From NCBI GenBank assembly GCA_965223665.1, contig OZ245011.1, positions 3,488,001-3,552,000 of the forward strand: a DNA stretch of 64,000 nucleotides. The letters run 5' to 3'. Every line of letters starts with the position of its first letter. The stretch's first letter is position 1. The notes below the pieces were generated by a model that was given only the letters and a program-made list of their open reading frames with translations, made no database searches and was not told where the DNA came from. Source of the DNA: Nitrospinaceae bacterium (GTDB taxonomy: Bacteria; Nitrospinota; Nitrospinia; Nitrospinales; Nitrospinaceae). Below, piece after piece: positions 1 to 9,913 of this stretch. The position numbers and the translations under genes are program-made.

Positions 1-567
1 ACCTATATTAGCGGAAACTCCATCCGCCCGGGTTATGTGATTATTTATAATGATGATTTATACAGGGTTATGTCTGCCGAACATCGAACCCCTGGAAATA
101 AACGCGCTTTTATGCAGGCAAAATTGAGAAATCTAAAAAATGGAAATCAAACAGAAGTTAAATTCCGGGCAGATGAGGAAATTCAAAGAGCTGTTTTAGA
201 ACAAGCAGAAATGGAATATTTATATTCAGATACTTCTGGTTATTGCTTTATGAATTGCGAAACTTATGAACAAATTTTTGTAGATGAAGATATCATTTCT
301 GACTCTAAGTCTTTTCTGCTTCCCAACACAAAAGCGCAAATCGAATTTCATGAAGGGAAACCCATTGGAATCGATTTGCCTGAAACCGTAGACTTGAAAA
401 TCATTGATACCGAGCCACCTTTAAAAGGAGCCACGGCATCTGGCTCAGGAAAGCCCGCTACTTTGGAAACAGGTTTAGTGGTTACGGTCCCTCAATTTAT
501 TGAAATTGATGAAGTTGTTCGAGTTTCAACTTCTTCTGGCCAATATTTAGAGAGGGTTAAAAAATAA
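1..567 (+). CDS. efp: Elongation factor P (5'-truncated by window edge)
   Basis: Frame is open from base 1 (TYISGNSIRPGYVI...). EF-P motifs MEYLY, KGATASGSGKPATLETG and VPQFI...G.YLER. Confidence 0.95.
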   Translation, partial: TYISGNSIRPGYVIIYNDDLYRVMSAEHRTPGNKRAFMQAKLRNLKNGNQTEVKFRADEEIQRAVLEQAEMEYLYSDTSGYCFMNCETYEQIFVDEDIISDSKSFLLPNTKAQIEFHEGKPIGIDLPETVDLKIIDTEPPLKGATASGSGKPATLETGLVVTVPQFIEIDEVVRVSTSSGQYLERVKK

Positions 568-861: not shown

Positions 862-1605
862 ATGCAGGAAGTCTCGGACACCATTGATCCATTAAGTGCT
901 TTGGAATTGATTGCTAGGTCAACTCCCACTGCCAAAGGCGTATTATTGCTTCTTTTGGTGTTTTCAATTGTTTCTTGGGCCATTATTTTTACAAAGTTTT
1001 TTATTTTCAGAAAAGCCCGAGAACAGGACAAAATGTTTATAGACTTTTTTTCCAAAAGTGAAAGCTTGAATAACATTTGTAATTTTTCCAAGGGGTTAAA
1101 GTACAGCCCAGTCGCACGTGTTTTTTTGACGGGCTATAATGAACTTTATGTATATAGGGAAGTTCAAAAATCTCCAAATGGAAACCCTGGAGATAAGACG
1201 GGTTTGACCACTAAAGATTTAAAAGGGATAAATTTAGCACTGAATAAATCCATTAACCGTGAAATAGAACGATTATCAGGCAAGCTGGATTTTTTAGCAA
1301 CCACAGGGAGTACCGCGCCTTTTATTGGATTATTTGGGACGGTGTGGGGGATTATGCACTCTTTCCGATTAATAGGCTTAAAGGGGTCAGCTAGTATAGG
1401 TGGTGTGGCTCCAGGAATAGCAGAAGCTTTGATTGCTACTGCAGCAGGTTTGGTGGCGGCCATTCCTGCAGTGGTATTTTTCAATTACCTAAACGCCAAA
1501 ATTCGCGGATTTTCACACCGGATGGAAGACTTTTCAGAAGATTTTTTATTTATGGTAGAAAAAAACTTTATGAAAGAATCTTCTGATCCTGTTCGTATTG
1601 ACTAG
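862..1605 (+). CDS. tolQ: TolQ (MotA/TolQ/ExbB proton channel)
   Basis: Motifs LATTGSTAPFIGLFGTVWGIM and GIAEALIATAAGL; AGGA SD; first gene of tol cluster. Confidence 0.93.
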   Translation: MQEVSDTIDPLSALELIARSTPTAKGVLLLLLVFSIVSWAIIFTKFFIFRKAREQDKMFIDFFSKSESLNNICNFSKGLKYSPVARVFLTGYNELYVYREVQKSPNGNPGDKTGLTTKDLKGINLALNKSINREIERLSGKLDFLATTGSTAPFIGLFGTVWGIMHSFRLIGLKGSASIGGVAPGIAEALIATAAGLVAAIPAVVFFNYLNAKIRGFSHRMEDFSEDFLFMVEKNFMKESSDPVRID

Positions 1606-1612
1606 ATAAGAT

Positions 1613-2017
1613 ATGATTGTAAAGCGTAATTCTAATTTAATGGCAGACATTAATGTCACTCCCTTTGTGGATGTAATGCTAGTATTGCTTGTCATATTTA
1701 TGATTACCGCACCCTTGATGCAACATGGCATGGATGTTGAACTTCCTCAGGAGAGTTCTTCTGTGGTTGAAGTTAAAGAAATTCCTTCTGTCACCATTCA
1801 AAATAATCGTAAAATCTATTGGAACGATGAAAATGTTCCTAACCTAATGATCCTAACTGAAAAAATAAATCAATATCTTAAGAATAATGATGAAAAGGCT
1901 GCCGTCTATTTTAGAGCTGATAAAACTTTGGACTATGGTTATGTAATGAAGGTAATGACGACTATCCGCCGTGCCGGAGTGCATAACATTGGTATGATGA
2001 CTGATCCACAGCAATGA
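1613..2017 (+). CDS. tolR: TolR (ExbD/TolR)
   Basis: INVTPFVDVMLVLLVIFMITAP and RADK..YG.VM.VM motifs. Confidence 0.93.
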   Translation: MIVKRNSNLMADINVTPFVDVMLVLLVIFMITAPLMQHGMDVELPQESSSVVEVKEIPSVTIQNNRKIYWNDENVPNLMILTEKINQYLKNNDEKAAVYFRADKTLDYGYVMKVMTTIRRAGVHNIGMMTDPQQ

Positions 2018-3591
2018 GAGCAAACCGTATTCCGTTTATTAATTTTAACCAGATGCTGGTCATATCTGTATTTGTTCATTTTGCGTTTTTAACCCTAATG
2101 ATGTTTATGCCCAAAACTCAATTAATGAAACAGAAAATAAAACCTGCATTTATGGTTGATTTGATTGAAATACCCAAATCTCCCAGTCAAGTAACTAAAC
2201 CACAGCCTGTGGTAGAAAAAAAACTGCCTCAAAAAGAACAATCCCCTCCTATTGAAAAGAGTATGGTTCCAAATAAACCAAAGAAGATTGCAAAGCCTAA
2301 ACCCGTTCCTGTGCAGAAAAAAGTGGCAGAAAAACCCAAAATGGAGGCTATAAAAGAACCCCAACCTGAACCTCTTCCCGAATTGAAGCCAATTGTACCT
2401 CCGAAACCAATTGTGACGCCTCTGATGGAAGCTCCTAAACCTTTTGACTATCAATTAAAGCCTGCACCAGAATTAAAAACTTCGGAGTTTAAGCGTAAGG
2501 AAATAGAACAATTTCAACCCGCACAGATTCCAACTCAACAGGAGATCACTGCAAAACCCTCTCTTCAATCTGAAGTAAAAAATCAACCTGTAGCGAACCC
2601 ATTACTAAAAAAATTAGACCAGATGGCAAAAATTGAGCCACAAGTTGCCAAGTCCAAACCAGTGCCAGCCAAACCTACTAGAGATCCTCTATTAGACCAA
2701 ACTTTTCAAGAGTTGAATGAAATTAGACCTGTTCCAAACACAAATCAAAAAAAATCGAAATTGGTGGTACCTGTACCTTCACATGACCCTTTTGAAGATT
2801 TTGAAAATATAAAAATGAAAAAAGATATTCAAAAGGTTGCTCCAAAACAAAATCAGATAGTGGCGGCGGCCCCAAAAAATCCTCAAGAACAAGCTTTTGA
2901 AGAGTTAACTCAAAAAAAGATCAAGTTGGACTCTGTAAAAACCCAACAACTTCCACAGTCCATTCAAAAAGAATTGGAAACGTTAAAAAATTTAAAAAGT
3001 AAGCCCGTTGTTGTGGCAAAATTAGATAAACGTACAAAGACGCGACCAAAACCTTCAAGTAGAAAAAGTTTAGCCCCTATATTAAATAAGAAATTAGATT
3101 CTTTAAAAAAGAAGTCTATTGAAGTTTCTGTGGAAATAAATACAAGTAAGAGCGCTTCAACAAAAACCCCTGCAGATTTAGTCTATAAAAGTAAGATTCG
3201 CAGTATAGAAGCGCCGGATTTAAAAACTAAAGTTGAAGTTGAAACTCCAGGGACTTCTTTTAAAAAAGTAAAACCCATGGGTACTTCCCAAATGGCCCCC
3301 AAGGGTAAGCCTTCCTCAACTGTTATTAATCATTATGCGGCAATGGTTAAAAGTCGGGTGCAAGAGCATTGGAAAGACCCAATCGGTGGAGGAAAAGGCG
3401 TAATTTTAGTTTCTTTTTATGTGTTTCCTGAAGGTAATATTGATAGCCCCGTGATAATACAAGAATCCAATGATTTCCATTTAGATAATTTAGCGATTCG
3501 AGCGATCCAGGATTCAGCACCGTTTCCGGTTTTTCCTGATGATTTAAGAATCCCCAATATGCGATTAACGCTGGAATTTAATTATGAATAA
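2014..3591 (+). CDS. tolA: TolA/TonB-family energy transducer with very long Pro/Lys-rich linker
   Basis: N-terminal TM with S-x3-H (ISVFVH), ~400-aa Pro/Lys/Gln-rich region, TonB_C-like end (LDNLAIRAIQDSAPFPVFP). Lies between tolR and tolB. Confidence 0.8.
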   Translation: MRANRIPFINFNQMLVISVFVHFAFLTLMMFMPKTQLMKQKIKPAFMVDLIEIPKSPSQVTKPQPVVEKKLPQKEQSPPIEKSMVPNKPKKIAKPKPVPVQKKVAEKPKMEAIKEPQPEPLPELKPIVPPKPIVTPLMEAPKPFDYQLKPAPELKTSEFKRKEIEQFQPAQIPTQQEITAKPSLQSEVKNQPVANPLLKKLDQMAKIEPQVAKSKPVPAKPTRDPLLDQTFQELNEIRPVPNTNQKKSKLVVPVPSHDPFEDFENIKMKKDIQKVAPKQNQIVAAAPKNPQEQAFEELTQKKIKLDSVKTQQLPQSIQKELETLKNLKSKPVVVAKLDKRTKTRPKPSSRKSLAPILNKKLDSLKKKSIEVSVEINTSKSASTKTPADLVYKSKIRSIEAPDLKTKVEVETPGTSFKKVKPMGTSQMAPKGKPSSTVINHYAAMVKSRVQEHWKDPIGGGKGVILVSFYVFPEGNIDSPVIIQESNDFHLDNLAIRAIQDSAPFPVFPDDLRIPNMRLTLEFNYE

Positions 3592-4927
3592 AATTCCCCT
3601 TAAAATTTTAAAATATTTATTGATAGCATTTCTTGTCTTAAGCATAAATTCAACAATTCATGCTCAGACTGATATTTTAATTGATCTTTCCAAGGAAACC
3701 CGGGAAGAAGTATCAATTGCTGTCACTGGATTTCAAGCGACTACAGAAAATAGCGATCCAGAGGTGGGAGTTAAAGGGCGAAAAATTTTAGAGGATGATC
3801 TAAAATTATTTGAGATATTTGTTCCTTTGGACCATGAATCATATAAAGAACTGGAAAACTTGGAGAATGGCCAAGGTGGTGTAAATTATGGGCAGTGGAA
3901 TTCATTAGGTGCTCAGTGGTTAATAAAGACGCAATATGAAACGCAAGGTAAAGATGGAAAAATTAAATTTACCTTCCGCTTATACGATGTCATTAACGAA
4001 CGATTTTTATTAGGAAAACGTTACCAAGGAACTCGAAGCTTTATCCGAAAAATAATGCACCGTTTTGCCGACAAGGTAATGGAAGAACTTACGGGTAAGC
4101 CGGGTGTGGCAGAAACCCAAATTGCTTTTCTGTCCCGGACAGAGCAGGGCAAGGAAATGTATGCCGTTGATTTTGATGGCGCCAATATTTCAAAACTCAC
4201 TAATGAAAAATCTGTTGTCCTCTCCCCAGATTGGTCTCCAGATGGACGTTCAATTGTATTTACTTCTTTTCAGGACCATAATCCAGATTTAATCATGGTC
4301 GATTCGTCTGGTCGAAGAAGGCGCGTATTATTGAAATTGCCTGGATTAAACTCAGCGCCTGCCTGGTCACCTGATGGAACGAAAATTTCCCTGGTACTAA
4401 GTAGAGATCAGAACTCAGAAATATATATTTTGAACCGTTGGAGAAAATTAACACGTCTCACCAGGCATTTTAATATCGATACCTCCCCAAGTTGGTCACC
4501 GGATGGTAAGAAAATTGCATTTACTTCCGATAGATCTGGGACAGGTCGTCCTCAGGTATATATTATGGATTCTGAAAATGGGGATAGGATGGGTGTGACT
4601 AGAATATCGTATGGATCTACCTATAATGATAATCCTGCTTGGTCACCCGATGGAGATAAAATCGCATATACGTCCTTGGTAGGTAAGGAATTTCAAATAA
4701 AGATTTATTATCCTGAATCTAAAAAAACTGTCCAAATTACAAATGGACCCGGTAGTAAAGAGGAGCCGTCATGGTCTCCAGATGGCAGATTTATTGCCTA
4801 TCACATGACCCAAGGCAAACAGTCTTCTATTCAAGTGAGGAGAATTGGAAGCCCACAAAGTAGGTCAATAACAAAGCTTGATATAGCGGCATTTAGTCCA
4901 ACTTGGTCGCCTTATCCGAATAAATAG
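3584..4927 (+). CDS. tolB: TolB beta-propeller periplasmic protein
   Basis: Signal peptide, TolB N-domain (HRFADKV..LTG), repeated P-x-WSPDG (PD40) blades. Confidence 0.95.
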   Translation: MNKIPLKILKYLLIAFLVLSINSTIHAQTDILIDLSKETREEVSIAVTGFQATTENSDPEVGVKGRKILEDDLKLFEIFVPLDHESYKELENLENGQGGVNYGQWNSLGAQWLIKTQYETQGKDGKIKFTFRLYDVINERFLLGKRYQGTRSFIRKIMHRFADKVMEELTGKPGVAETQIAFLSRTEQGKEMYAVDFDGANISKLTNEKSVVLSPDWSPDGRSIVFTSFQDHNPDLIMVDSSGRRRRVLLKLPGLNSAPAWSPDGTKISLVLSRDQNSEIYILNRWRKLTRLTRHFNIDTSPSWSPDGKKIAFTSDRSGTGRPQVYIMDSENGDRMGVTRISYGSTYNDNPAWSPDGDKIAYTSLVGKEFQIKIYYPESKKTVQITNGPGSKEEPSWSPDGRFIAYHMTQGKQSSIQVRRIGSPQSRSITKLDIAAFSPTWSPYPNK

Positions 4928-5044
4928 GTTTAGTCCGAAATCTTAAAGTGATCGATTTTTTTTAATTTGATTATTAGTATTTTTAATTTTGCTAAATCTA
5001 TTGAGAAATTAAATAAATTTATGGTTGGCAAATAGTTGATCTAT

Positions 5045-5074
5045 TTGACATTATGGATTTTGTTTTTCTATAAT
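5045..5074 (+). promoter_or_regulatory. Consensus sigma70 promoter for pal
   Basis: Perfect TTGACA (5045-5050) and TATAAT (5069-5074) with 18-nt spacer. Confidence 0.7.
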
Positions 5075-5212
5075 GGTAATTGTTTGTAAATTTGTCCAAT
5101 GAGGATCGGTATTTAGATATTTGTGTTTAACTTTAGTAAAGAAATTCGATTAGGTATGATCGTTAGTTAAATAAATATTCATTATTTTAAGGTTTCATCA
5201 CGAGGTTTCAAT

Positions 5213-6340
5213 ATGGTAAGAAACAAATTAAACAAAAAAACAAAAAAGACTTACCTTCTAGTTGCACTTTTAGCGATTACGGTTGGTACAGGGTGTGCAA
5301 AAACTTTATCCGCTCCTCCTAGTCCTGAAGCAAATAACTCGGGTTCTGCAGAGTTACAAGCAGAAAACAATGACGGTGTTAACTCCCAAGAAGGCATTGA
5401 TGAGTCAGGATTCCAGGAAAAAGGATTCGATATTCAAGGCGACTCCAGTCAAGTTGAAACATCTCCATTTATTACTGAAAGTTCTTCTGGTGATGGACCT
5501 ATTCCTGCAGATGAACCGGAAATGTCAGCTTCAGATATGGGTGAAGGAGTAGCTCCTGATTTTGATGGCAATTCATCGCAATCTGATTTTGGAGGTGGAA
5601 ACACCGGAGCAATGGCTCTTCAAGATAAACCTTATGAAGCGGACCCTTTTTCTGGTGGATCTGGAAGTGACCAAAACTCTAATTTGTCTGGAATGGACTC
5701 AGGAAATGTTATGGCAGATGGTTCATCGAATACAATGTCTTCAGATGGCTCTTCACCAATAGTGTCTAACTCCTTTACTGATTCTGGAAGCAATTCAGGC
5801 GATACGATGGCAGATGGCTCAGGATCCATGGGTGATGGTTCAGGGTCTATGGGTAATGGTTCTTCCAACAGTGGAAACTCATTTGATATTTTTGCAAATG
5901 AAGAAACCCCTCCAGTAAGTGACGGTGGAGCTTCCGGAGATGGAGGAATTGTTTCTGATTCAAACTCAGGTGCAGAGGAAGCAAGACTTCTGTCCTTTAA
6001 AAGTGAAGACCAATTAGCGGATATTCATTTTGATTTTGATCGCTATGATTTAGACGATAGCAATATGGAAATATTACGTAAAAATGCTGACTGGTTGAAA
6101 AGTAATCCAGCTACAAAGGTTGAAATTCAAGGTCATTGCGATGAAAGAGGAACAAACAACTATAACCTTACCTTAGGCGAACGTCGAGCTTTGGCTACTA
6201 AGAAGTATTTGGTTTCTTTAGGAGTCGAAGAAGACCGATTATTTACAATTAGCTATGGTGAGGAAAAGCCGTTTTGTTTTGAAAGTGATGAAAGTTGCTG
6301 GAAAAATAATCGACGAGCTCACTTTATGGTAGCAGAATAG
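5213..6340 (+). CDS. pal: Peptidoglycan-associated lipoprotein Pal with long acidic Ser/Gly/Asp linker
   Basis: Lipobox-like VGTGC (Cys28). C-terminal OmpA_C domain (IHFDFD, IQGHCDERGTNNYNLTLGERRA, SYGEEKP, NRR). Follows tolB. Confidence 0.92.
   Translation: MVRNKLNKKTKKTYLLVALLAITVGTGCAKTLSAPPSPEANNSGSAELQAENNDGVNSQEGIDESGFQEKGFDIQGDSSQVETSPFITESSSGDGPIPADEPEMSASDMGEGVAPDFDGNSSQSDFGGGNTGAMALQDKPYEADPFSGGSGSDQNSNLSGMDSGNVMADGSSNTMSSDGSSPIVSNSFTDSGSNSGDTMADGSGSMGDGSGSMGNGSSNSGNSFDIFANEETPPVSDGGASGDGGIVSDSNSGAEEARLLSFKSEDQLADIHFDFDRYDLDDSNMEILRKNADWLKSNPATKVEIQGHCDERGTNNYNLTLGERRALATKKYLVSLGVEEDRLFTISYGEEKPFCFESDESCWKNNRRAHFMVAE
5807..5869 (+). repeat. Three imperfect 21-bp tandem repeats in pal linker (MADGSGS/MGDGSGS/MGNGSSN)
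   Basis: atggcagatggctcaggatcc / atgggtgatggttcagggtct / atgggtaatggttcttccaac. Confidence 0.8.
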
Positions 6341-6388
6341 GGCTCATTGAAATTATCAAATGGCCTAACCAATTTTACTCTCAACTTT

Positions 6389-6428
6389 ATGACCGCAACG
6401 CGATATACTTGTTGCGGTCATTTTTTTT
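6389..6428 (+). terminator. Rho-independent terminator after pal
   Basis: Stem ATGACCGCAAC / GTTGCGGTCAT followed by a T tract. Confidence 0.85.
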
Positions 6429-6484
6429 GTTTTTAATACTAGCCTGATTTTACTTCTAATCTCGGTTATTCATTCAACTTTTTT

Positions 6485-8335
6485 ATGGGGATGAGAAAGA
6501 TGATGAAAAAATTTTTCTTACCTAGCATTTTGGTTTTTATGTTGGTTTCTAATAGCCATGCCCAGCTATTTGGAAATAATGAAAAGATGGATAAATTGTT
6601 AACTCGCATTAAATTAATGAATGCGAGTCTTCAAGAAAGTGTTATTCCAAAAATAAATAGTCTTAACACCGAGGTTAAAAATATTAATGGAGAAATCCAA
6701 AATATTAAAGTGAACCAAGCGAAATTATTACAGCAAATGGACTATGTGAAAAGCTCCTTTCCTGGTTTGCAAGGAGCAATTGAACAGAATAGCTCTCAAA
6801 TGATTGAACAGGTCCAGCAAATGGATTTGCGTTTGGAAGATTTAGATTCGCAGGTGAAAAAAGGGTTAGCAAAACAGCTGAATGATTTAGCCATAGCCCT
6901 CAATGATCAGGGATCAAATCAGAAATCGCAATTAGACCAATTTGTTGTGGAACAAAAAGAAAGTATGACTCAATTAATTGGAGAACAAAAAAATGAAATG
7001 GGAAACCTCAAGACTGCAATGGGAAAATTGCAGGAAGGCGTGGGTTCTCATTTAATCCAGGTAAAAGATGCAGTAGCCAAAGAGATTGAACAAATTGTGC
7101 TGCGGAATGAAAAATCGCTGAGTGGATTTTCAAACAAAAATGACCATAATTTTGTAGCAGTCCAAAATGCTTTAAATAAACAAGGGGAGCAGGTGAATCA
7201 GAAAATTGGCGAGGCAATTACTGTTATGCAAGAAGTGGTTACTGCTGTTGAGGGAAACAAGCAATCCATGGACCAAAGCTTCCAGGCAATTCAAGTTCAG
7301 AATGAAAGTATGAAAGAAGGTTTAGGGCTAGTCGATAAAAATACACAATTGATAGATCTAAAAAGTCAAAAAGTGGTTGAAGTGATGGAAAGTAGTTTGC
7401 AAAAGCAAACGGATAGTGATCTCAAACTTAATACCCTAATCGGAAACCTCAATAAAACCAATGAGAATGTTAATAGCAGTAGGGAAGCGATGTTGAGTCT
7501 GAAAAAGATTATGGACCAAAAATTGTCGCAGCTTTCTGCTGTGGGTGGAACGAATCAGGGTAAGTTTGAAAAGTTTGCGCAAAGAATTGATTTGGTAAAA
7601 GATAATTTGCTGATAGCAGATACAAAGTTGAATAAATTAGCGGATGGTTTAAAAGCTATGCAAGATCAAAATATTTCATCCACCAAAGCAATAGTTTCAA
7701 TGCAAGAAAAAGTAGCTCAGGTTCAAAGTTCAAGTCTTCAAACAGATCAAAAGTTTAATAGGCTGATTGACTCAACAAAGTCGATGTTGGCTCATTCATC
7801 TAAGTTAGGGAAAGATGTAGAGCTTTCAATGCAAAAAATAGATGCAGGTAGTAATCAGTCAAATTTAACTCAACAGAAAATAAACGAGTTGATTGAAATA
7901 TTAAAAGCAATTGCAGTTAAACAAAATGAAATTGAAGAGAAGTTTAACAGTCAACAATCTAATATTTTTCAAGCTTTATCAAATTCAAATCAAGCTATTG
8001 AAAAATCCAAGGTGGAATTGGTGAATTCTATAAATGGAACTAAAGTGCAGATTCAAAAAGATATAGGTGATTCTGCCGAACAGCTTCATGCAGAGTTGTC
8101 AAATTCTAAGGTAGACATTGGCAAGGTTATTACAGCTTCTAGAAATGAGCTTTACCAGGCGGTAGCAACTGCAAGAAATGATTTGATGCAAAGTATTGCC
8201 ACCTCACACGGAGAGTCAAAAGCATATTTAAACGATATTCGGACTATGTCTAATGCAAACAATGTTAAGAATGATAATATTCTTAATTCAATCCGTGGTG
8301 TCCGTCGAACAAAGAAATCCACAGCAAAAAAATAG
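6485..8335 (+). CDS. Secreted long coiled-coil protein (in the cpoB/ybgF position)
   Basis: Sec signal peptide (…VSNSHA), Gln/Lys/Asn/Ser-rich heptad pattern, almost no Pro, no TPRs seen. Confidence 0.75.
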   Translation: MGMRKMMKKFFLPSILVFMLVSNSHAQLFGNNEKMDKLLTRIKLMNASLQESVIPKINSLNTEVKNINGEIQNIKVNQAKLLQQMDYVKSSFPGLQGAIEQNSSQMIEQVQQMDLRLEDLDSQVKKGLAKQLNDLAIALNDQGSNQKSQLDQFVVEQKESMTQLIGEQKNEMGNLKTAMGKLQEGVGSHLIQVKDAVAKEIEQIVLRNEKSLSGFSNKNDHNFVAVQNALNKQGEQVNQKIGEAITVMQEVVTAVEGNKQSMDQSFQAIQVQNESMKEGLGLVDKNTQLIDLKSQKVVEVMESSLQKQTDSDLKLNTLIGNLNKTNENVNSSREAMLSLKKIMDQKLSQLSAVGGTNQGKFEKFAQRIDLVKDNLLIADTKLNKLADGLKAMQDQNISSTKAIVSMQEKVAQVQSSSLQTDQKFNRLIDSTKSMLAHSSKLGKDVELSMQKIDAGSNQSNLTQQKINELIEILKAIAVKQNEIEEKFNSQQSNIFQALSNSNQAIEKSKVELVNSINGTKVQIQKDIGDSAEQLHAELSNSKVDIGKVITASRNELYQAVATARNDLMQSIATSHGESKAYLNDIRTMSNANNVKNDNILNSIRGVRRTKKSTAKK

Positions 8336-8489: not shown

Positions 8490-8530
8490 TTTAAAGTTAA
8501 TTATTGAGCAATCTGCTTTGTTTGAGGTTG

Positions 8531-9913
8531 ATGGGAAAAGTGGTCAAGAACCTTACAGTTTATATTTGCCAATCTTGTGGACACCAGGCTCCCAAATGGT
8601 TAGGTAAATGTCCTGAATGTTCTGAGTGGAATTCTTTGGTGGAGGAAAAAATTTCCTCGTCCCATTCTTCACCTAAAAACTCTCTTGCCCTCGATTTAAA
8701 GGTTTCTCCGCTTCGACCTCTGAGTGATATTTCTTCAACCGCTCGAGAGAGAATGACCACTGGAATCGATGAATTTGACCGTGCCTTGGGTGGAGGGATT
8801 GTTTCTGGAAGTTTAATTTTGATTGGTGGAGATCCAGGAATCGGGAAATCAACCCTGGTCTTGCAAAGTATGTCTCAGTTAGCAACTAAGGGTGAAACGT
8901 TACTATATGTTTCTGGTGAAGAATCTTTAGAGCAAATAAAAATGCGAGCGGATCGACTAAAAGTTTCTTCTAATAACCTTTTGGTATATTCAGAAATATG
9001 TATTGAAGAGGTTTTAAAGAAAGTGGAGGAAATTAAACCTGATTTATTAGTTCTAGATTCTATTCAAACTTTTTTTACTTCAGAACTTCAATCTGCACCT
9101 GGAAGTATTGGTCAAGTTAGAGAAGTTGCTTTTAAGCTATTTAAAGAATGTAAACAAAGATCAGTTCCCGCAATTATTATTGGTCATATTACCAAAGAGG
9201 GAGCAATTGCAGGGCCTAAATCCTTAGAGCATATGGTCGATTGCGTATTATATTTTGAAGGAGAACGCGGTCATTCATTTCGTATTTTACGAGCCATTAA
9301 AAATCGATTCGGCTCAACCCCTGAAATGGGAGTTTTTGAAATGGGATTAGAGGGCCTAATACCAGTATCCAATCCTTCGGAGATATTTTTAGCCGAACGA
9401 CCAGAGAATTCTACAGGTTCAGTAATTGCAGCTACCTTAGAAGGGAGCCGACCCTTATTGGTTGAAGTACAAGCTTTGGTTACAGCCTCTTCAACTGTCG
9501 GTATGCCAAGGCGAGTTACCTCGAATTTAGATCCGAATCGGATAAATCTATTGGTGGCGATTATGGAAAAACGTTTAGAGCTGAATTTACAAAGAGAGGA
9601 TATTTTTGTTAATTTAGCTGGAGGAATTAAAGTTACCGAACCCGCGATGGATTTAGCTCTGGCTACTGCCATAGCCAGTAGTTTCCAAAATTTACCCGTT
9701 GATTCTAATACCATTATGATTGGCGAAGTGGGTCTTACGGGAGAAGTAAGATCTGTAATGCAATTGGATTCCAGGCTTAAGGAAGCAGCAAAATTGGGTT
9801 TTAAAAGAGCTGTGATTCCTGAATCTGCCAGGAAATCTAAATATTTATCTAACCATTCAATAGAATTAATTTTTGTGAAAAATTTGCAAGAAGCGTTTGA
9901 AGCAGTTCTATAA
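8531..9913 (+). CDS. radA: DNA repair protein RadA/Sms
   Basis: C4 zinc finger, Walker A GDPGIGKST, KNRFG motif, Lon-like C-terminus. ATG at 8531 preceded by GAGG. Confidence 0.96.
   Translation: MGKVVKNLTVYICQSCGHQAPKWLGKCPECSEWNSLVEEKISSSHSSPKNSLALDLKVSPLRPLSDISSTARERMTTGIDEFDRALGGGIVSGSLILIGGDPGIGKSTLVLQSMSQLATKGETLLYVSGEESLEQIKMRADRLKVSSNNLLVYSEICIEEVLKKVEEIKPDLLVLDSIQTFFTSELQSAPGSIGQVREVAFKLFKECKQRSVPAIIIGHITKEGAIAGPKSLEHMVDCVLYFEGERGHSFRILRAIKNRFGSTPEMGVFEMGLEGLIPVSNPSEIFLAERPENSTGSVIAATLEGSRPLLVEVQALVTASSTVGMPRRVTSNLDPNRINLLVAIMEKRLELNLQREDIFVNLAGGIKVTEPAMDLALATAIASSFQNLPVDSNTIMIGEVGLTGEVRSVMQLDSRLKEAAKLGFKRAVIPESARKSKYLSNHSIELIFVKNLQEAFEAVL

Follow-up and report, generated by a model that had tools for sequence, protein, structure and literature searches.

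Why should three proteins of one envelope system be long together? The question is raised by the tol-pal cluster near the start of a stretch of 64,000 nucleotides from a Nitrospinaceae bacterium (NCBI GenBank assembly GCA_965223665.1, contig OZ245011.1, positions 3,488,001 to 3,552,000 of the forward strand), which was analysed at its full length and is called the window here. TolA has 525 amino acids (aa), Pal 375, and the signal-peptide coiled-coil protein encoded after pal 616; an initial annotation had already reported all three, and the open reading frames (ORFs), the family matches and a helical model bear them out. Apparently these lengths belong together. Across 51 operons they are strongly correlated, before as well as after phylogenetic correction, and so the elongations do co-occur in relatives, the point on which the initial annotation had staked its case. 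The explanation favoured here, whose chances of being right or wrong seem evenly balanced, is that TolA, Pal and the coiled coil are a length-matched set working across an enlarged gap between the outer membrane and the cell wall.

The evidence that carries the co-variation comes from 97 loci, from which 51 non-redundant operons were retained. Excluded were 27 loci without at least one of TolR, TolA, TolB, Pal and the coiled coil (26 short fragments or contig ends, and L045, to which no Pal was assigned by the script), 18 duplicates of the same genome and one locus (L031) with a split tolA. Gene starts were placed by landmarks, namely an N-terminal motif in TolA, the lipobox cysteine in Pal and, in the coiled coil, the N-terminus of the mature protein, which is conserved. 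On this basis TolA ranges from 349 to 730 aa, mature Pal from 184 to 444 and the mature coiled coil from 342 to 809 (over the first 47 operons the medians are 429, 244 and 448), with raw Pearson coefficients (n=51) of 0.86 for TolA and Pal, 0.91 for TolA and the coiled coil and 0.83 for Pal and the coiled coil. Because relatives are not independent, contrasts were taken on a midpoint-rooted FastTree tree of TolQ, TolR, TolB, RadA and EFP (n=50 contrasts), and the coefficients for the same three pairs are then 0.73, 0.91 and 0.72, or 0.71, 0.85 and 0.66 once the most extreme genome is removed; contrasts share their sign in 38/47, 37/44 and 39/45 cases respectively. The ratio of coiled-coil to TolA length is 1.07 +/- 0.08, and regression on TolA gives slopes of 1.31 for the coiled coil and 0.78 for Pal. 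TolR (130-150 aa) and TolQ (237-271 aa) vary little across the 51 operons, TolB is of ordinary length, and a CpoB-like lipoprotein encoded elsewhere in the genome does not track the three, so that the earlier description of every spanning component as elongated was an overstatement.

The genes and sites concerned, in window coordinates, are these:

37..567, + strand, efp (elongation factor P), an ORF, the conserved 5' neighbour of the cluster
862..1605, + strand, tolQ, 247 aa, of ordinary length (TIGR02796 222.8 bits, cut-off 221; PF01618 123.8 bits)
1613..2017, + strand, tolR, 134 aa, not elongated (PF02472 105.5 bits, cut-off 25.4)
2014..3591, + strand, tolA, 525 aa, located between tolR and tolB (PF13103 37.4 bits, residues 440-512; PF03544 26.8 bits)
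3584..4927, + strand, tolB, 447 aa, of ordinary length (TIGR02800 361.7 bits, cut-off 343.15; TolB_N and PD40 repeats)
5045..5074, + strand, promoter-like site, 12/12 match (TTGACA, 18 nt, TATAAT), in the 285-bp spacer between tolB and pal
5213..6340, + strand, pal, 375 aa (TIGR02802 133.2 bits, cut-off 125; PF00691 74.2 bits)
6399..6416, + strand, weak terminator-like hairpin of 7 pairs (3 G-C) in the gap between pal and the coiled-coil gene, from a scan not enriched over shuffles
6485..8335, + strand, the post-pal secreted coiled-coil protein, 616 aa, assigned by its helical model, conserved motifs and position after pal
8504..9913, + strand, radA, by Pfam architecture, the conserved 3' neighbour

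In the window ORF list efp is thus followed by seven co-directional + strand ORFs, tolQ, tolR, tolA, tolB, pal, the 616-aa ORF and radA. Scores exceed the NCBIfam equivalog cut-off for TolQ, TolB and Pal; TolR scores 123.7 bits against TIGR02801, which is 3.6 bits below its cut-off of 127.3 and well above the Pfam ExbD cut-off. A TolQ/TolR stator pair, a three-part TolA lying between tolR and tolB, and TolB together with a Pal lipoprotein are all present, and the cluster is best regarded as a Tol-Pal system whose CpoB module has probably been remodelled, rather than as a system of a new category. The promoter-like site at 5045-5074 is a perfect sigma-70 consensus and suggests a promoter of its own for pal, perhaps also serving the coiled-coil gene; since the promoter scan overall is not enriched relative to shuffles (26 found, 24.5 expected), it is taken as a lead only.

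Gene order is strictly kept. In all 51 non-redundant operons tolR, tolA, tolB, pal and the coiled-coil gene lie on one strand in an identical order with the coiled-coil gene directly 3' of pal, and EFP and RadA are found on the same fragment in 44 and 42 of them. The comparison across relatives that the initial annotation had called for therefore gives a conserved order, and sister orders carry a short TolA and a shorter Pal. Homologues of the 616-aa protein occur in 36 of 41 related genomes, its own included. A pattern scan over one genome per species gave 61 loci, of which 58 are labelled Nitrospinota, Nitrospinae, Nitrospinales, Nitrospinia, Nitrospinaceae or Nitrospina, and the other three Nitrospirae, Opitutia and uncultured bacterium. 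Searching 1.84 billion representative proteins with the coiled-coil profile yields just 248 at E<=1e-3, and all named relatives are Nitrospina or Nitrospinae entries that bear the title "hypothetical protein" and have no Pfam domain. Within a sample of the phylum 91 of 120 genomes match the coiled coil at E<=1e-8, all belonging to the order of the window (19/20, 62/70, 6/6 and 3/5 in its families), the 11 genomes of that order without a match having completeness of 59-86%, and none of the 18 genomes from the five other families of the class does. As judged from these searches, the post-pal protein is a lineage-restricted, uncharacterised family of the window's order.

The elongation of TolA and Pal is located in their linkers. 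TolA has an N-terminal membrane helix, a domain II of about residues 46-430 (bases 2149-3303, the boundaries being our own delineation) and a TonB-like C-terminus (bases ~3304-3588); its family match is confined to the C-terminal TonB_2/TonB_C domain (residues 440-524), and it is otherwise recognised by position. Domain II has some 385 residues, is rich in lysine and proline (68 K and 54 P in residues 46-430), and exceeds the span of 110-335 residues (median 192) given for Proteobacteria (PMC12204202). Short amphipathic helix motifs, split by Lys/Pro-rich spacers, are placed along it, and by a motif rule there are three in the shortest TolA, four in the window (residues 198, 231, 260 and 321) and 13 in the longest. 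Three relatives show irregular arrangements at this gene. In L031:5020-6416 (+) of relative G011 tolA is two ORFs of 289 and 171 aa, and the split may be genuine or may come from a frameshift or an error in the assembly. An additional 186-aa ORF between tolA and tolB in L023:5733-6293 (+) of relative G003 has a signal-like leader and resembles the TolA C-terminal domain (E = 4e-20, window residues 421-524), and an additional ORF of 462 aa at the same place in L047:5096-6484 (+) of relative G033 is similar to TolB of the window (E = 1e-30) and also to residues 213-524 of the window TolA (E = 3e-27) and may be a hybrid or duplicated gene.

In Pal a lipoprotein signal, whose cysteine is Cys28, comes first. 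The linker occupies bases 5297-5974, and bases 5975-6337 encode the OmpA-like domain that binds peptidoglycan; the TIGR02802 match is limited to residues 271-372. With the E. coli-type Pal model having 171 positions, the 375 aa are about twice the usual, and the linker alone, some 226 residues (29-254), is longer than that entire model. It is acidic (net charge -35), Ser, Gly, Asp and Asn being abundant in it, and within this low-complexity region lies a 21-bp repeat of 2.3 copies (5814-5862). The Pal linker is acidic in every homologue (-5 to -36) and TolA domain II mostly basic; an electrostatic matching of the two was considered and rejected, their net charges being uncorrelated (r = -0.15).

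The third protein begins with a signal peptidase-I type signal (residues 1-26, bases 6485-6562), which leaves a mature part of 590 residues, and it has no cysteine. No Pfam family is matched at E<=0.01, NCBIfam gives just a 24.7-bit SMC match, and a protein Atlas search returned its own family alone. Its hydrophobic periodicity peaks at 3.56 residues (37.9 against 15.9 +/- 1.8 in shuffled controls), and an AlphaFold2 model is nearly all helix, with helices at 34-215, 223-352, 358-453 and 461-610 (pLDDT 57, pTM 0.22). A short orthologue is modelled as one confidently predicted helix of 171 residues (pLDDT 72-93) followed by four shorter ones (overall pLDDT 69.6, pTM 0.25). A helix rises 0.15 nm per residue, and at this rise the 171-residue helix would measure ~25 nm, the window's first helix (182 residues) ~27 nm and all the window helices laid end to end ~84 nm. 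N-terminal, middle and C-terminal motifs are conserved across 30 coiled-coil homologues, helical segments being gained or lost between them; in the longest homologue one motif occurs nine times, mostly at a spacing of 42 residues, and the same motif occurs once in other members. Self-BLAST of the protein for internal repeats gave no off-diagonal matches.

Where such a rod comes from is suggested by the sister orders. The usual gene after pal is CpoB/YbgF. Tol-pal loci were sampled in 13 genomes from five other families of the class, in which TolA has 276-323 aa in each of the eight genomes where it is on the fragment and identified, and Pal 162-320 aa. After pal these families (f5 to f9) have:

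f5, a secreted coiled-coil protein of 337 aa that has no TPR
f6, no co-directional gene
f7, a secreted coiled coil without TPR, 232 aa
f8, a coiled-coil lipoprotein of 184 aa, likewise TPR-free
f9, a lipoprotein, 405-497 aa by longest-ORF calls, that combines a long coiled coil, a proline-rich linker and a YbgF-type TPR

The f9 protein matches TPR_6 at 63-73 bits and YfiO at 40-48 bits, with a weak TolA_bind_tri match (20.9 bits), beside TPR_6 at 63.5 bits, in one of three scanned. The profile of the window family aligns over 120 columns, among them the family's invariant Gly-x-x-Glu motif, with the 337-aa f5 protein (hhalign probability 88%, E = 3e-6) and weakly with the 232-aa f7 protein (28%), and the f5 protein in turn matches the coiled-coil part of the TPR-bearing f9 protein by BLASTP (E = 4e-8). 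TolA_bind_tri (PF16331) itself has weak matches in four of 30 homologues of the window protein (best E = 1.5e-4) and in none of seven further members or two sister-order proteins at E<=0.05, and a TPR domain is found neither in the 616-aa protein nor among the families listed for the 30 scanned homologues. This chain of similarity, with the constant position after pal, makes descent from CpoB the most economical reading, and the post-pal rod probably descends from the part of CpoB/YbgF that forms the trimerising coiled coil, in an expanded form and without the TPR. The ancestral post-pal gene would have been a CpoB with coiled coil and TPR, the enlarged coiled coil without TPR being kept there in the window's order and a lipoprotein with coiled coil and TPR being retained elsewhere in the genome. 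The new structural component of the initial annotation thus survives as an uncharacterised family restricted to this lineage, and is probably not wholly new. Separately, in f9 (L169, L171, L172, L174-L176) sequence is highly repetitive in the Pal linkers and on the strand opposite to pal, and the coiled coil of the post-pal CpoB has tandem short repeats.

In the genome of the window the best CpoB candidate is a lipoprotein of 328 aa at ~930,717-931,700 (-) of the same contig (L001:1483-2469), ~2.6 Mb from the cluster and between a NifS/IscS-like gene and a glycosyltransferase. Its parts are a disordered linker of acidic character, a coiled coil at ~residues 100-190 and a TPR of the YbgF type, and it matches TIGR02795 at 66.8 bits, below the cut-off of 90.1; none of the 53 matches to that model in the whole genome exceeds the cut-off, the best being 69.5 bits in an unlinked lipoprotein. 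One strong orthologue of the CpoB-like lipoprotein is present in 41 of 41 relatives, with a mature length of 284-383 aa.

The mechanism preferred here is that TolA stalk, Pal linker and post-pal rod were lengthened and kept matched in the window's order. TolA domain II would act as a flexible stalk that starts at the inner membrane and extends in the direction of the outer one, from which the disordered Pal linker would suspend the wall-binding domain. Parts crossing or filling the space between outer membrane and wall would scale under a shared geometric constraint, and TolR, spanning only from inner membrane to wall, would stay fixed; with TolR constant while Pal linker and TolA vary, we infer that the gap between outer membrane and wall is the variable one. 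Within it the rod may serve as a spacer or scaffold, probably alongside TolA as CpoB is in E. coli (PMC7391070), and work on Lpp in E. coli offers the experimental precedent for the fit needed between coiled-coil length and Pal reach (PMC8824477). In a more pointed version, which we consider unlikely, the coiled coil would be a free-standing molecular ruler, a non-lipidated counterpart of Lpp derived from CpoB, which sets the distance between outer membrane and wall in Nitrospinales and to which TolA stalk and Pal linker are selected to match. Were that so, the series of 342-809 residues would predict graded envelope widths across species.

The first competitor leaves envelope spacing unchanged and has the rod lying along TolA domain II, with TolA helices docking on the coiled coil such that each added TolA module needs added rod and Pal follows separately. 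TolA and the coiled coil are indeed the tightest pair, in contrasts as well as in the near-constant ratio of their lengths, the conserved short helix motifs in domain II rise in number with its length, and domain II is what CpoB binds in E. coli (PMC7391070). However that contact is made by the TPR and not by the coiled coil (PMC7391070), and the rod has no TPR; moreover the scaling of the Pal linker (0.72-0.73) is left unexplained. A complex prediction for the shortest orthologous pair, mature coiled coil (342 aa) with periplasmic TolA (310 aa), made with a 51-row alignment per chain, gave ipSAE of 0.01 and 0.00 and no verdict, and it counts neither for nor against contact. Direct co-assembly of this kind seems on balance improbable.

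A second competitor needs no coupling. Larger genomes could tolerate longer low-complexity or repeat regions and streamlined genomes trim them, the three proteins simply sharing the trend. Genome size does correlate with TolA (raw 0.64), Pal (0.82) and the rod (0.69), and continues to do so after correction (0.52-0.60), so that a general trend of expansion or streamlining contributes to the co-variation; the frame length of IF-2 correlates with all three in the raw data (0.56-0.60). However the IF-2 correlation is gone once phylogeny is corrected for (-0.17 to 0.20), and the frame length of FtsZ shows no relation to the three (raw -0.01 to -0.18). Nor does the CpoB-like lipoprotein follow, although its linker is likewise acidic and disordered; if anything it is negatively related (raw -0.49 to -0.54, n=23; contrasts -0.20 to -0.41, n=22). 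With genome size and IF-2 length held, partial correlations in the raw data (n=27) are still 0.76 for TolA and Pal, 0.89 for TolA and the coiled coil and 0.74 for Pal and the coiled coil, and in the subsets used for the corrected controls the TolA and coiled-coil contrasts correlate at 0.92. In addition the rod grows by structured helical modules with conserved motifs and not by low-complexity sequence. A background trend with genome size exists, yet it does not account for the three-way coupling, and expansion of the three proteins in parallel, each on its own, is quite unlikely.

Further yardsticks were sought. The best TonB-like match tracks the three lengths after correction (0.38-0.56; 0.45 with TolA), a result treated as weak because its orthology is uncertain, most matches covering only the C-terminal domain. 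The TonB homologues of the genome also appear long. One of 452 aa in L148:1495-2853 (-), that is contig ~2,012,477-2,013,832, has a long Ser/Lys/Pro-rich middle with three similar repeats of ~40 residues, and two more have 345 and 453 aa. As a second yardstick another peptidoglycan-binding lipoprotein of the outer membrane was looked for, and the three other proteins with OmpA domains in the genome turned out to be MotB-like and anchored in the inner membrane. L162:1468-2967 (-) and L163:1387-2919 (-), also of this genome, are paralogues of ~500 aa in which a long N-terminal and apparently cytoplasmic coiled coil precedes one membrane helix and a C-terminal OmpA-like domain, an unusual MotB-like architecture.

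Finally, that the coiled-coil protein merely neighbours pal and has another role, such as apolipoprotein-like lipid binding or that of a periplasmic stress or scaffold protein, is very unlikely: a possible promoter region of its own and the weak terminator-like site after pal would allow it, and a profile search of solved structures finds outside the family only apolipoprotein A-I/A-IV and a designed helical bundle (E >= 7e-5), but the Pfam Apolipoprotein A1/A4/E model (PF01442) reaches 15.9 bits against a cut-off of 90 (four of 30 members matching, best E = 0.0059), the gene directly follows pal in every operon, post-pal coiled coils are present in sister orders too, and rod length tracks TolA.

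Several points weigh against a length-matched set in a wider gap and against its CpoB ancestry. Both monomer models of the rod are of low confidence by pTM and do not discriminate an extended from a folded-back form, and the rod has no lipid anchor, cysteine or recognised wall-binding domain. Compared directly, the profile of the window family and the TPR-bearing f9 protein do not match significantly (probability 3%), a profile-profile match to the sister group (92%) was not counted as it covers the signal peptide and N-terminus only, and the chain leading to CpoB rests on coiled-coil sequence, which can mislead. As to the lengths, gene starts were set by our own motif rules, those of IF-2, FtsZ and TonB-like proteins are stop-to-stop frames, genome size continues to track all three after correction (contrasts 0.52-0.60), and the CpoB-like lipoprotein does not scale with the set. 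No measurement of envelope spacing for any Nitrospinota was found in the literature searched. The wide periplasm that the initial annotation mentioned for Nitrospina was likewise not verifiable there (accessible parts of PMC3578206, PMC8026999 and PMC8494671), an unusually wide periplasm being documented in those sources for Nitrotoga only (PMC8494671).

In a literature search no paper on Nitrospina Tol-Pal or on the coiled-coil family was found; "Nitrospin" is absent from the main text of PMC12204202, the supplements of which may list such species. Because no such paper was found, and because that survey reports a weak correlation between TolA and TonB and leaves the link to periplasm width open, a strong, phylogenetically corrected three-way co-variation and a free coiled coil derived from CpoB appear to be undescribed. 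Spacing of envelope layers in Gram-negative bacteria is known mainly from engineered E. coli variants of Lpp length. Here a whole order offers a natural series in which TolA as force transducer, Pal as wall tether and the uncharacterised rod vary together by about two-fold and TolR is fixed. It makes testable whether tether length follows envelope spacing, which gap varies, and what role the coiled coil of CpoB takes on once it is separated from the TPR half, and it gives a name and context to a database family of "hypothetical protein" entries in the main marine nitrite oxidisers.

Among known systems CpoB/YbgF (TIGR02795; PF16331 plus TPR) is the nearest to the rod: both are encoded directly after pal, and both are secreted proteins whose coiled coil is N-terminal. 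In E. coli, CpoB has 28 kDa and combines a trimeric coiled coil with a TPR (PMC7391070). The rod is two to three times as long and has neither a TPR nor a lipobox, whereas most non-proteobacterial CpoB are lipoproteins (PMC12204202). With TolA and Pal of the E. coli type the window proteins share domain order, place in the operon and recognisable OmpA-like (Pal) and C-terminal (TolA) domains. The survey of proteobacterial TolA and TonB domain II lengths shares with this work the idea that linker length may reflect periplasm width, a link it states to be untested, and found a weak correlation of 0.28 (PMC12204202). A TonB-like protein here also tracks TolA moderately, and the correlation reported here is in contrast strong, survives phylogenetic correction and includes Pal and a third protein.

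Lpp, Braun's lipoprotein of E. coli, is a coiled coil that holds the outer membrane off the wall, and it resembles the rod in being periplasmic and of a length that could fix a distance or be fitted to one. It has 58 residues, the rod being some ten times longer, without lipid anchor or cysteine and without detected sequence similarity. A wall attachment like that of Lpp through a C-terminal lysine is unsupported, lysine being the last residue in just 28 of 51 homologues. In E. coli Lpp is a brace that sets length, and lengthening it makes Pal, OmpA, YiaD and TolC essential (PMC8824477). By analogy, that lengthening is the experimental counterpart of the co-variation which the window's order displays naturally.

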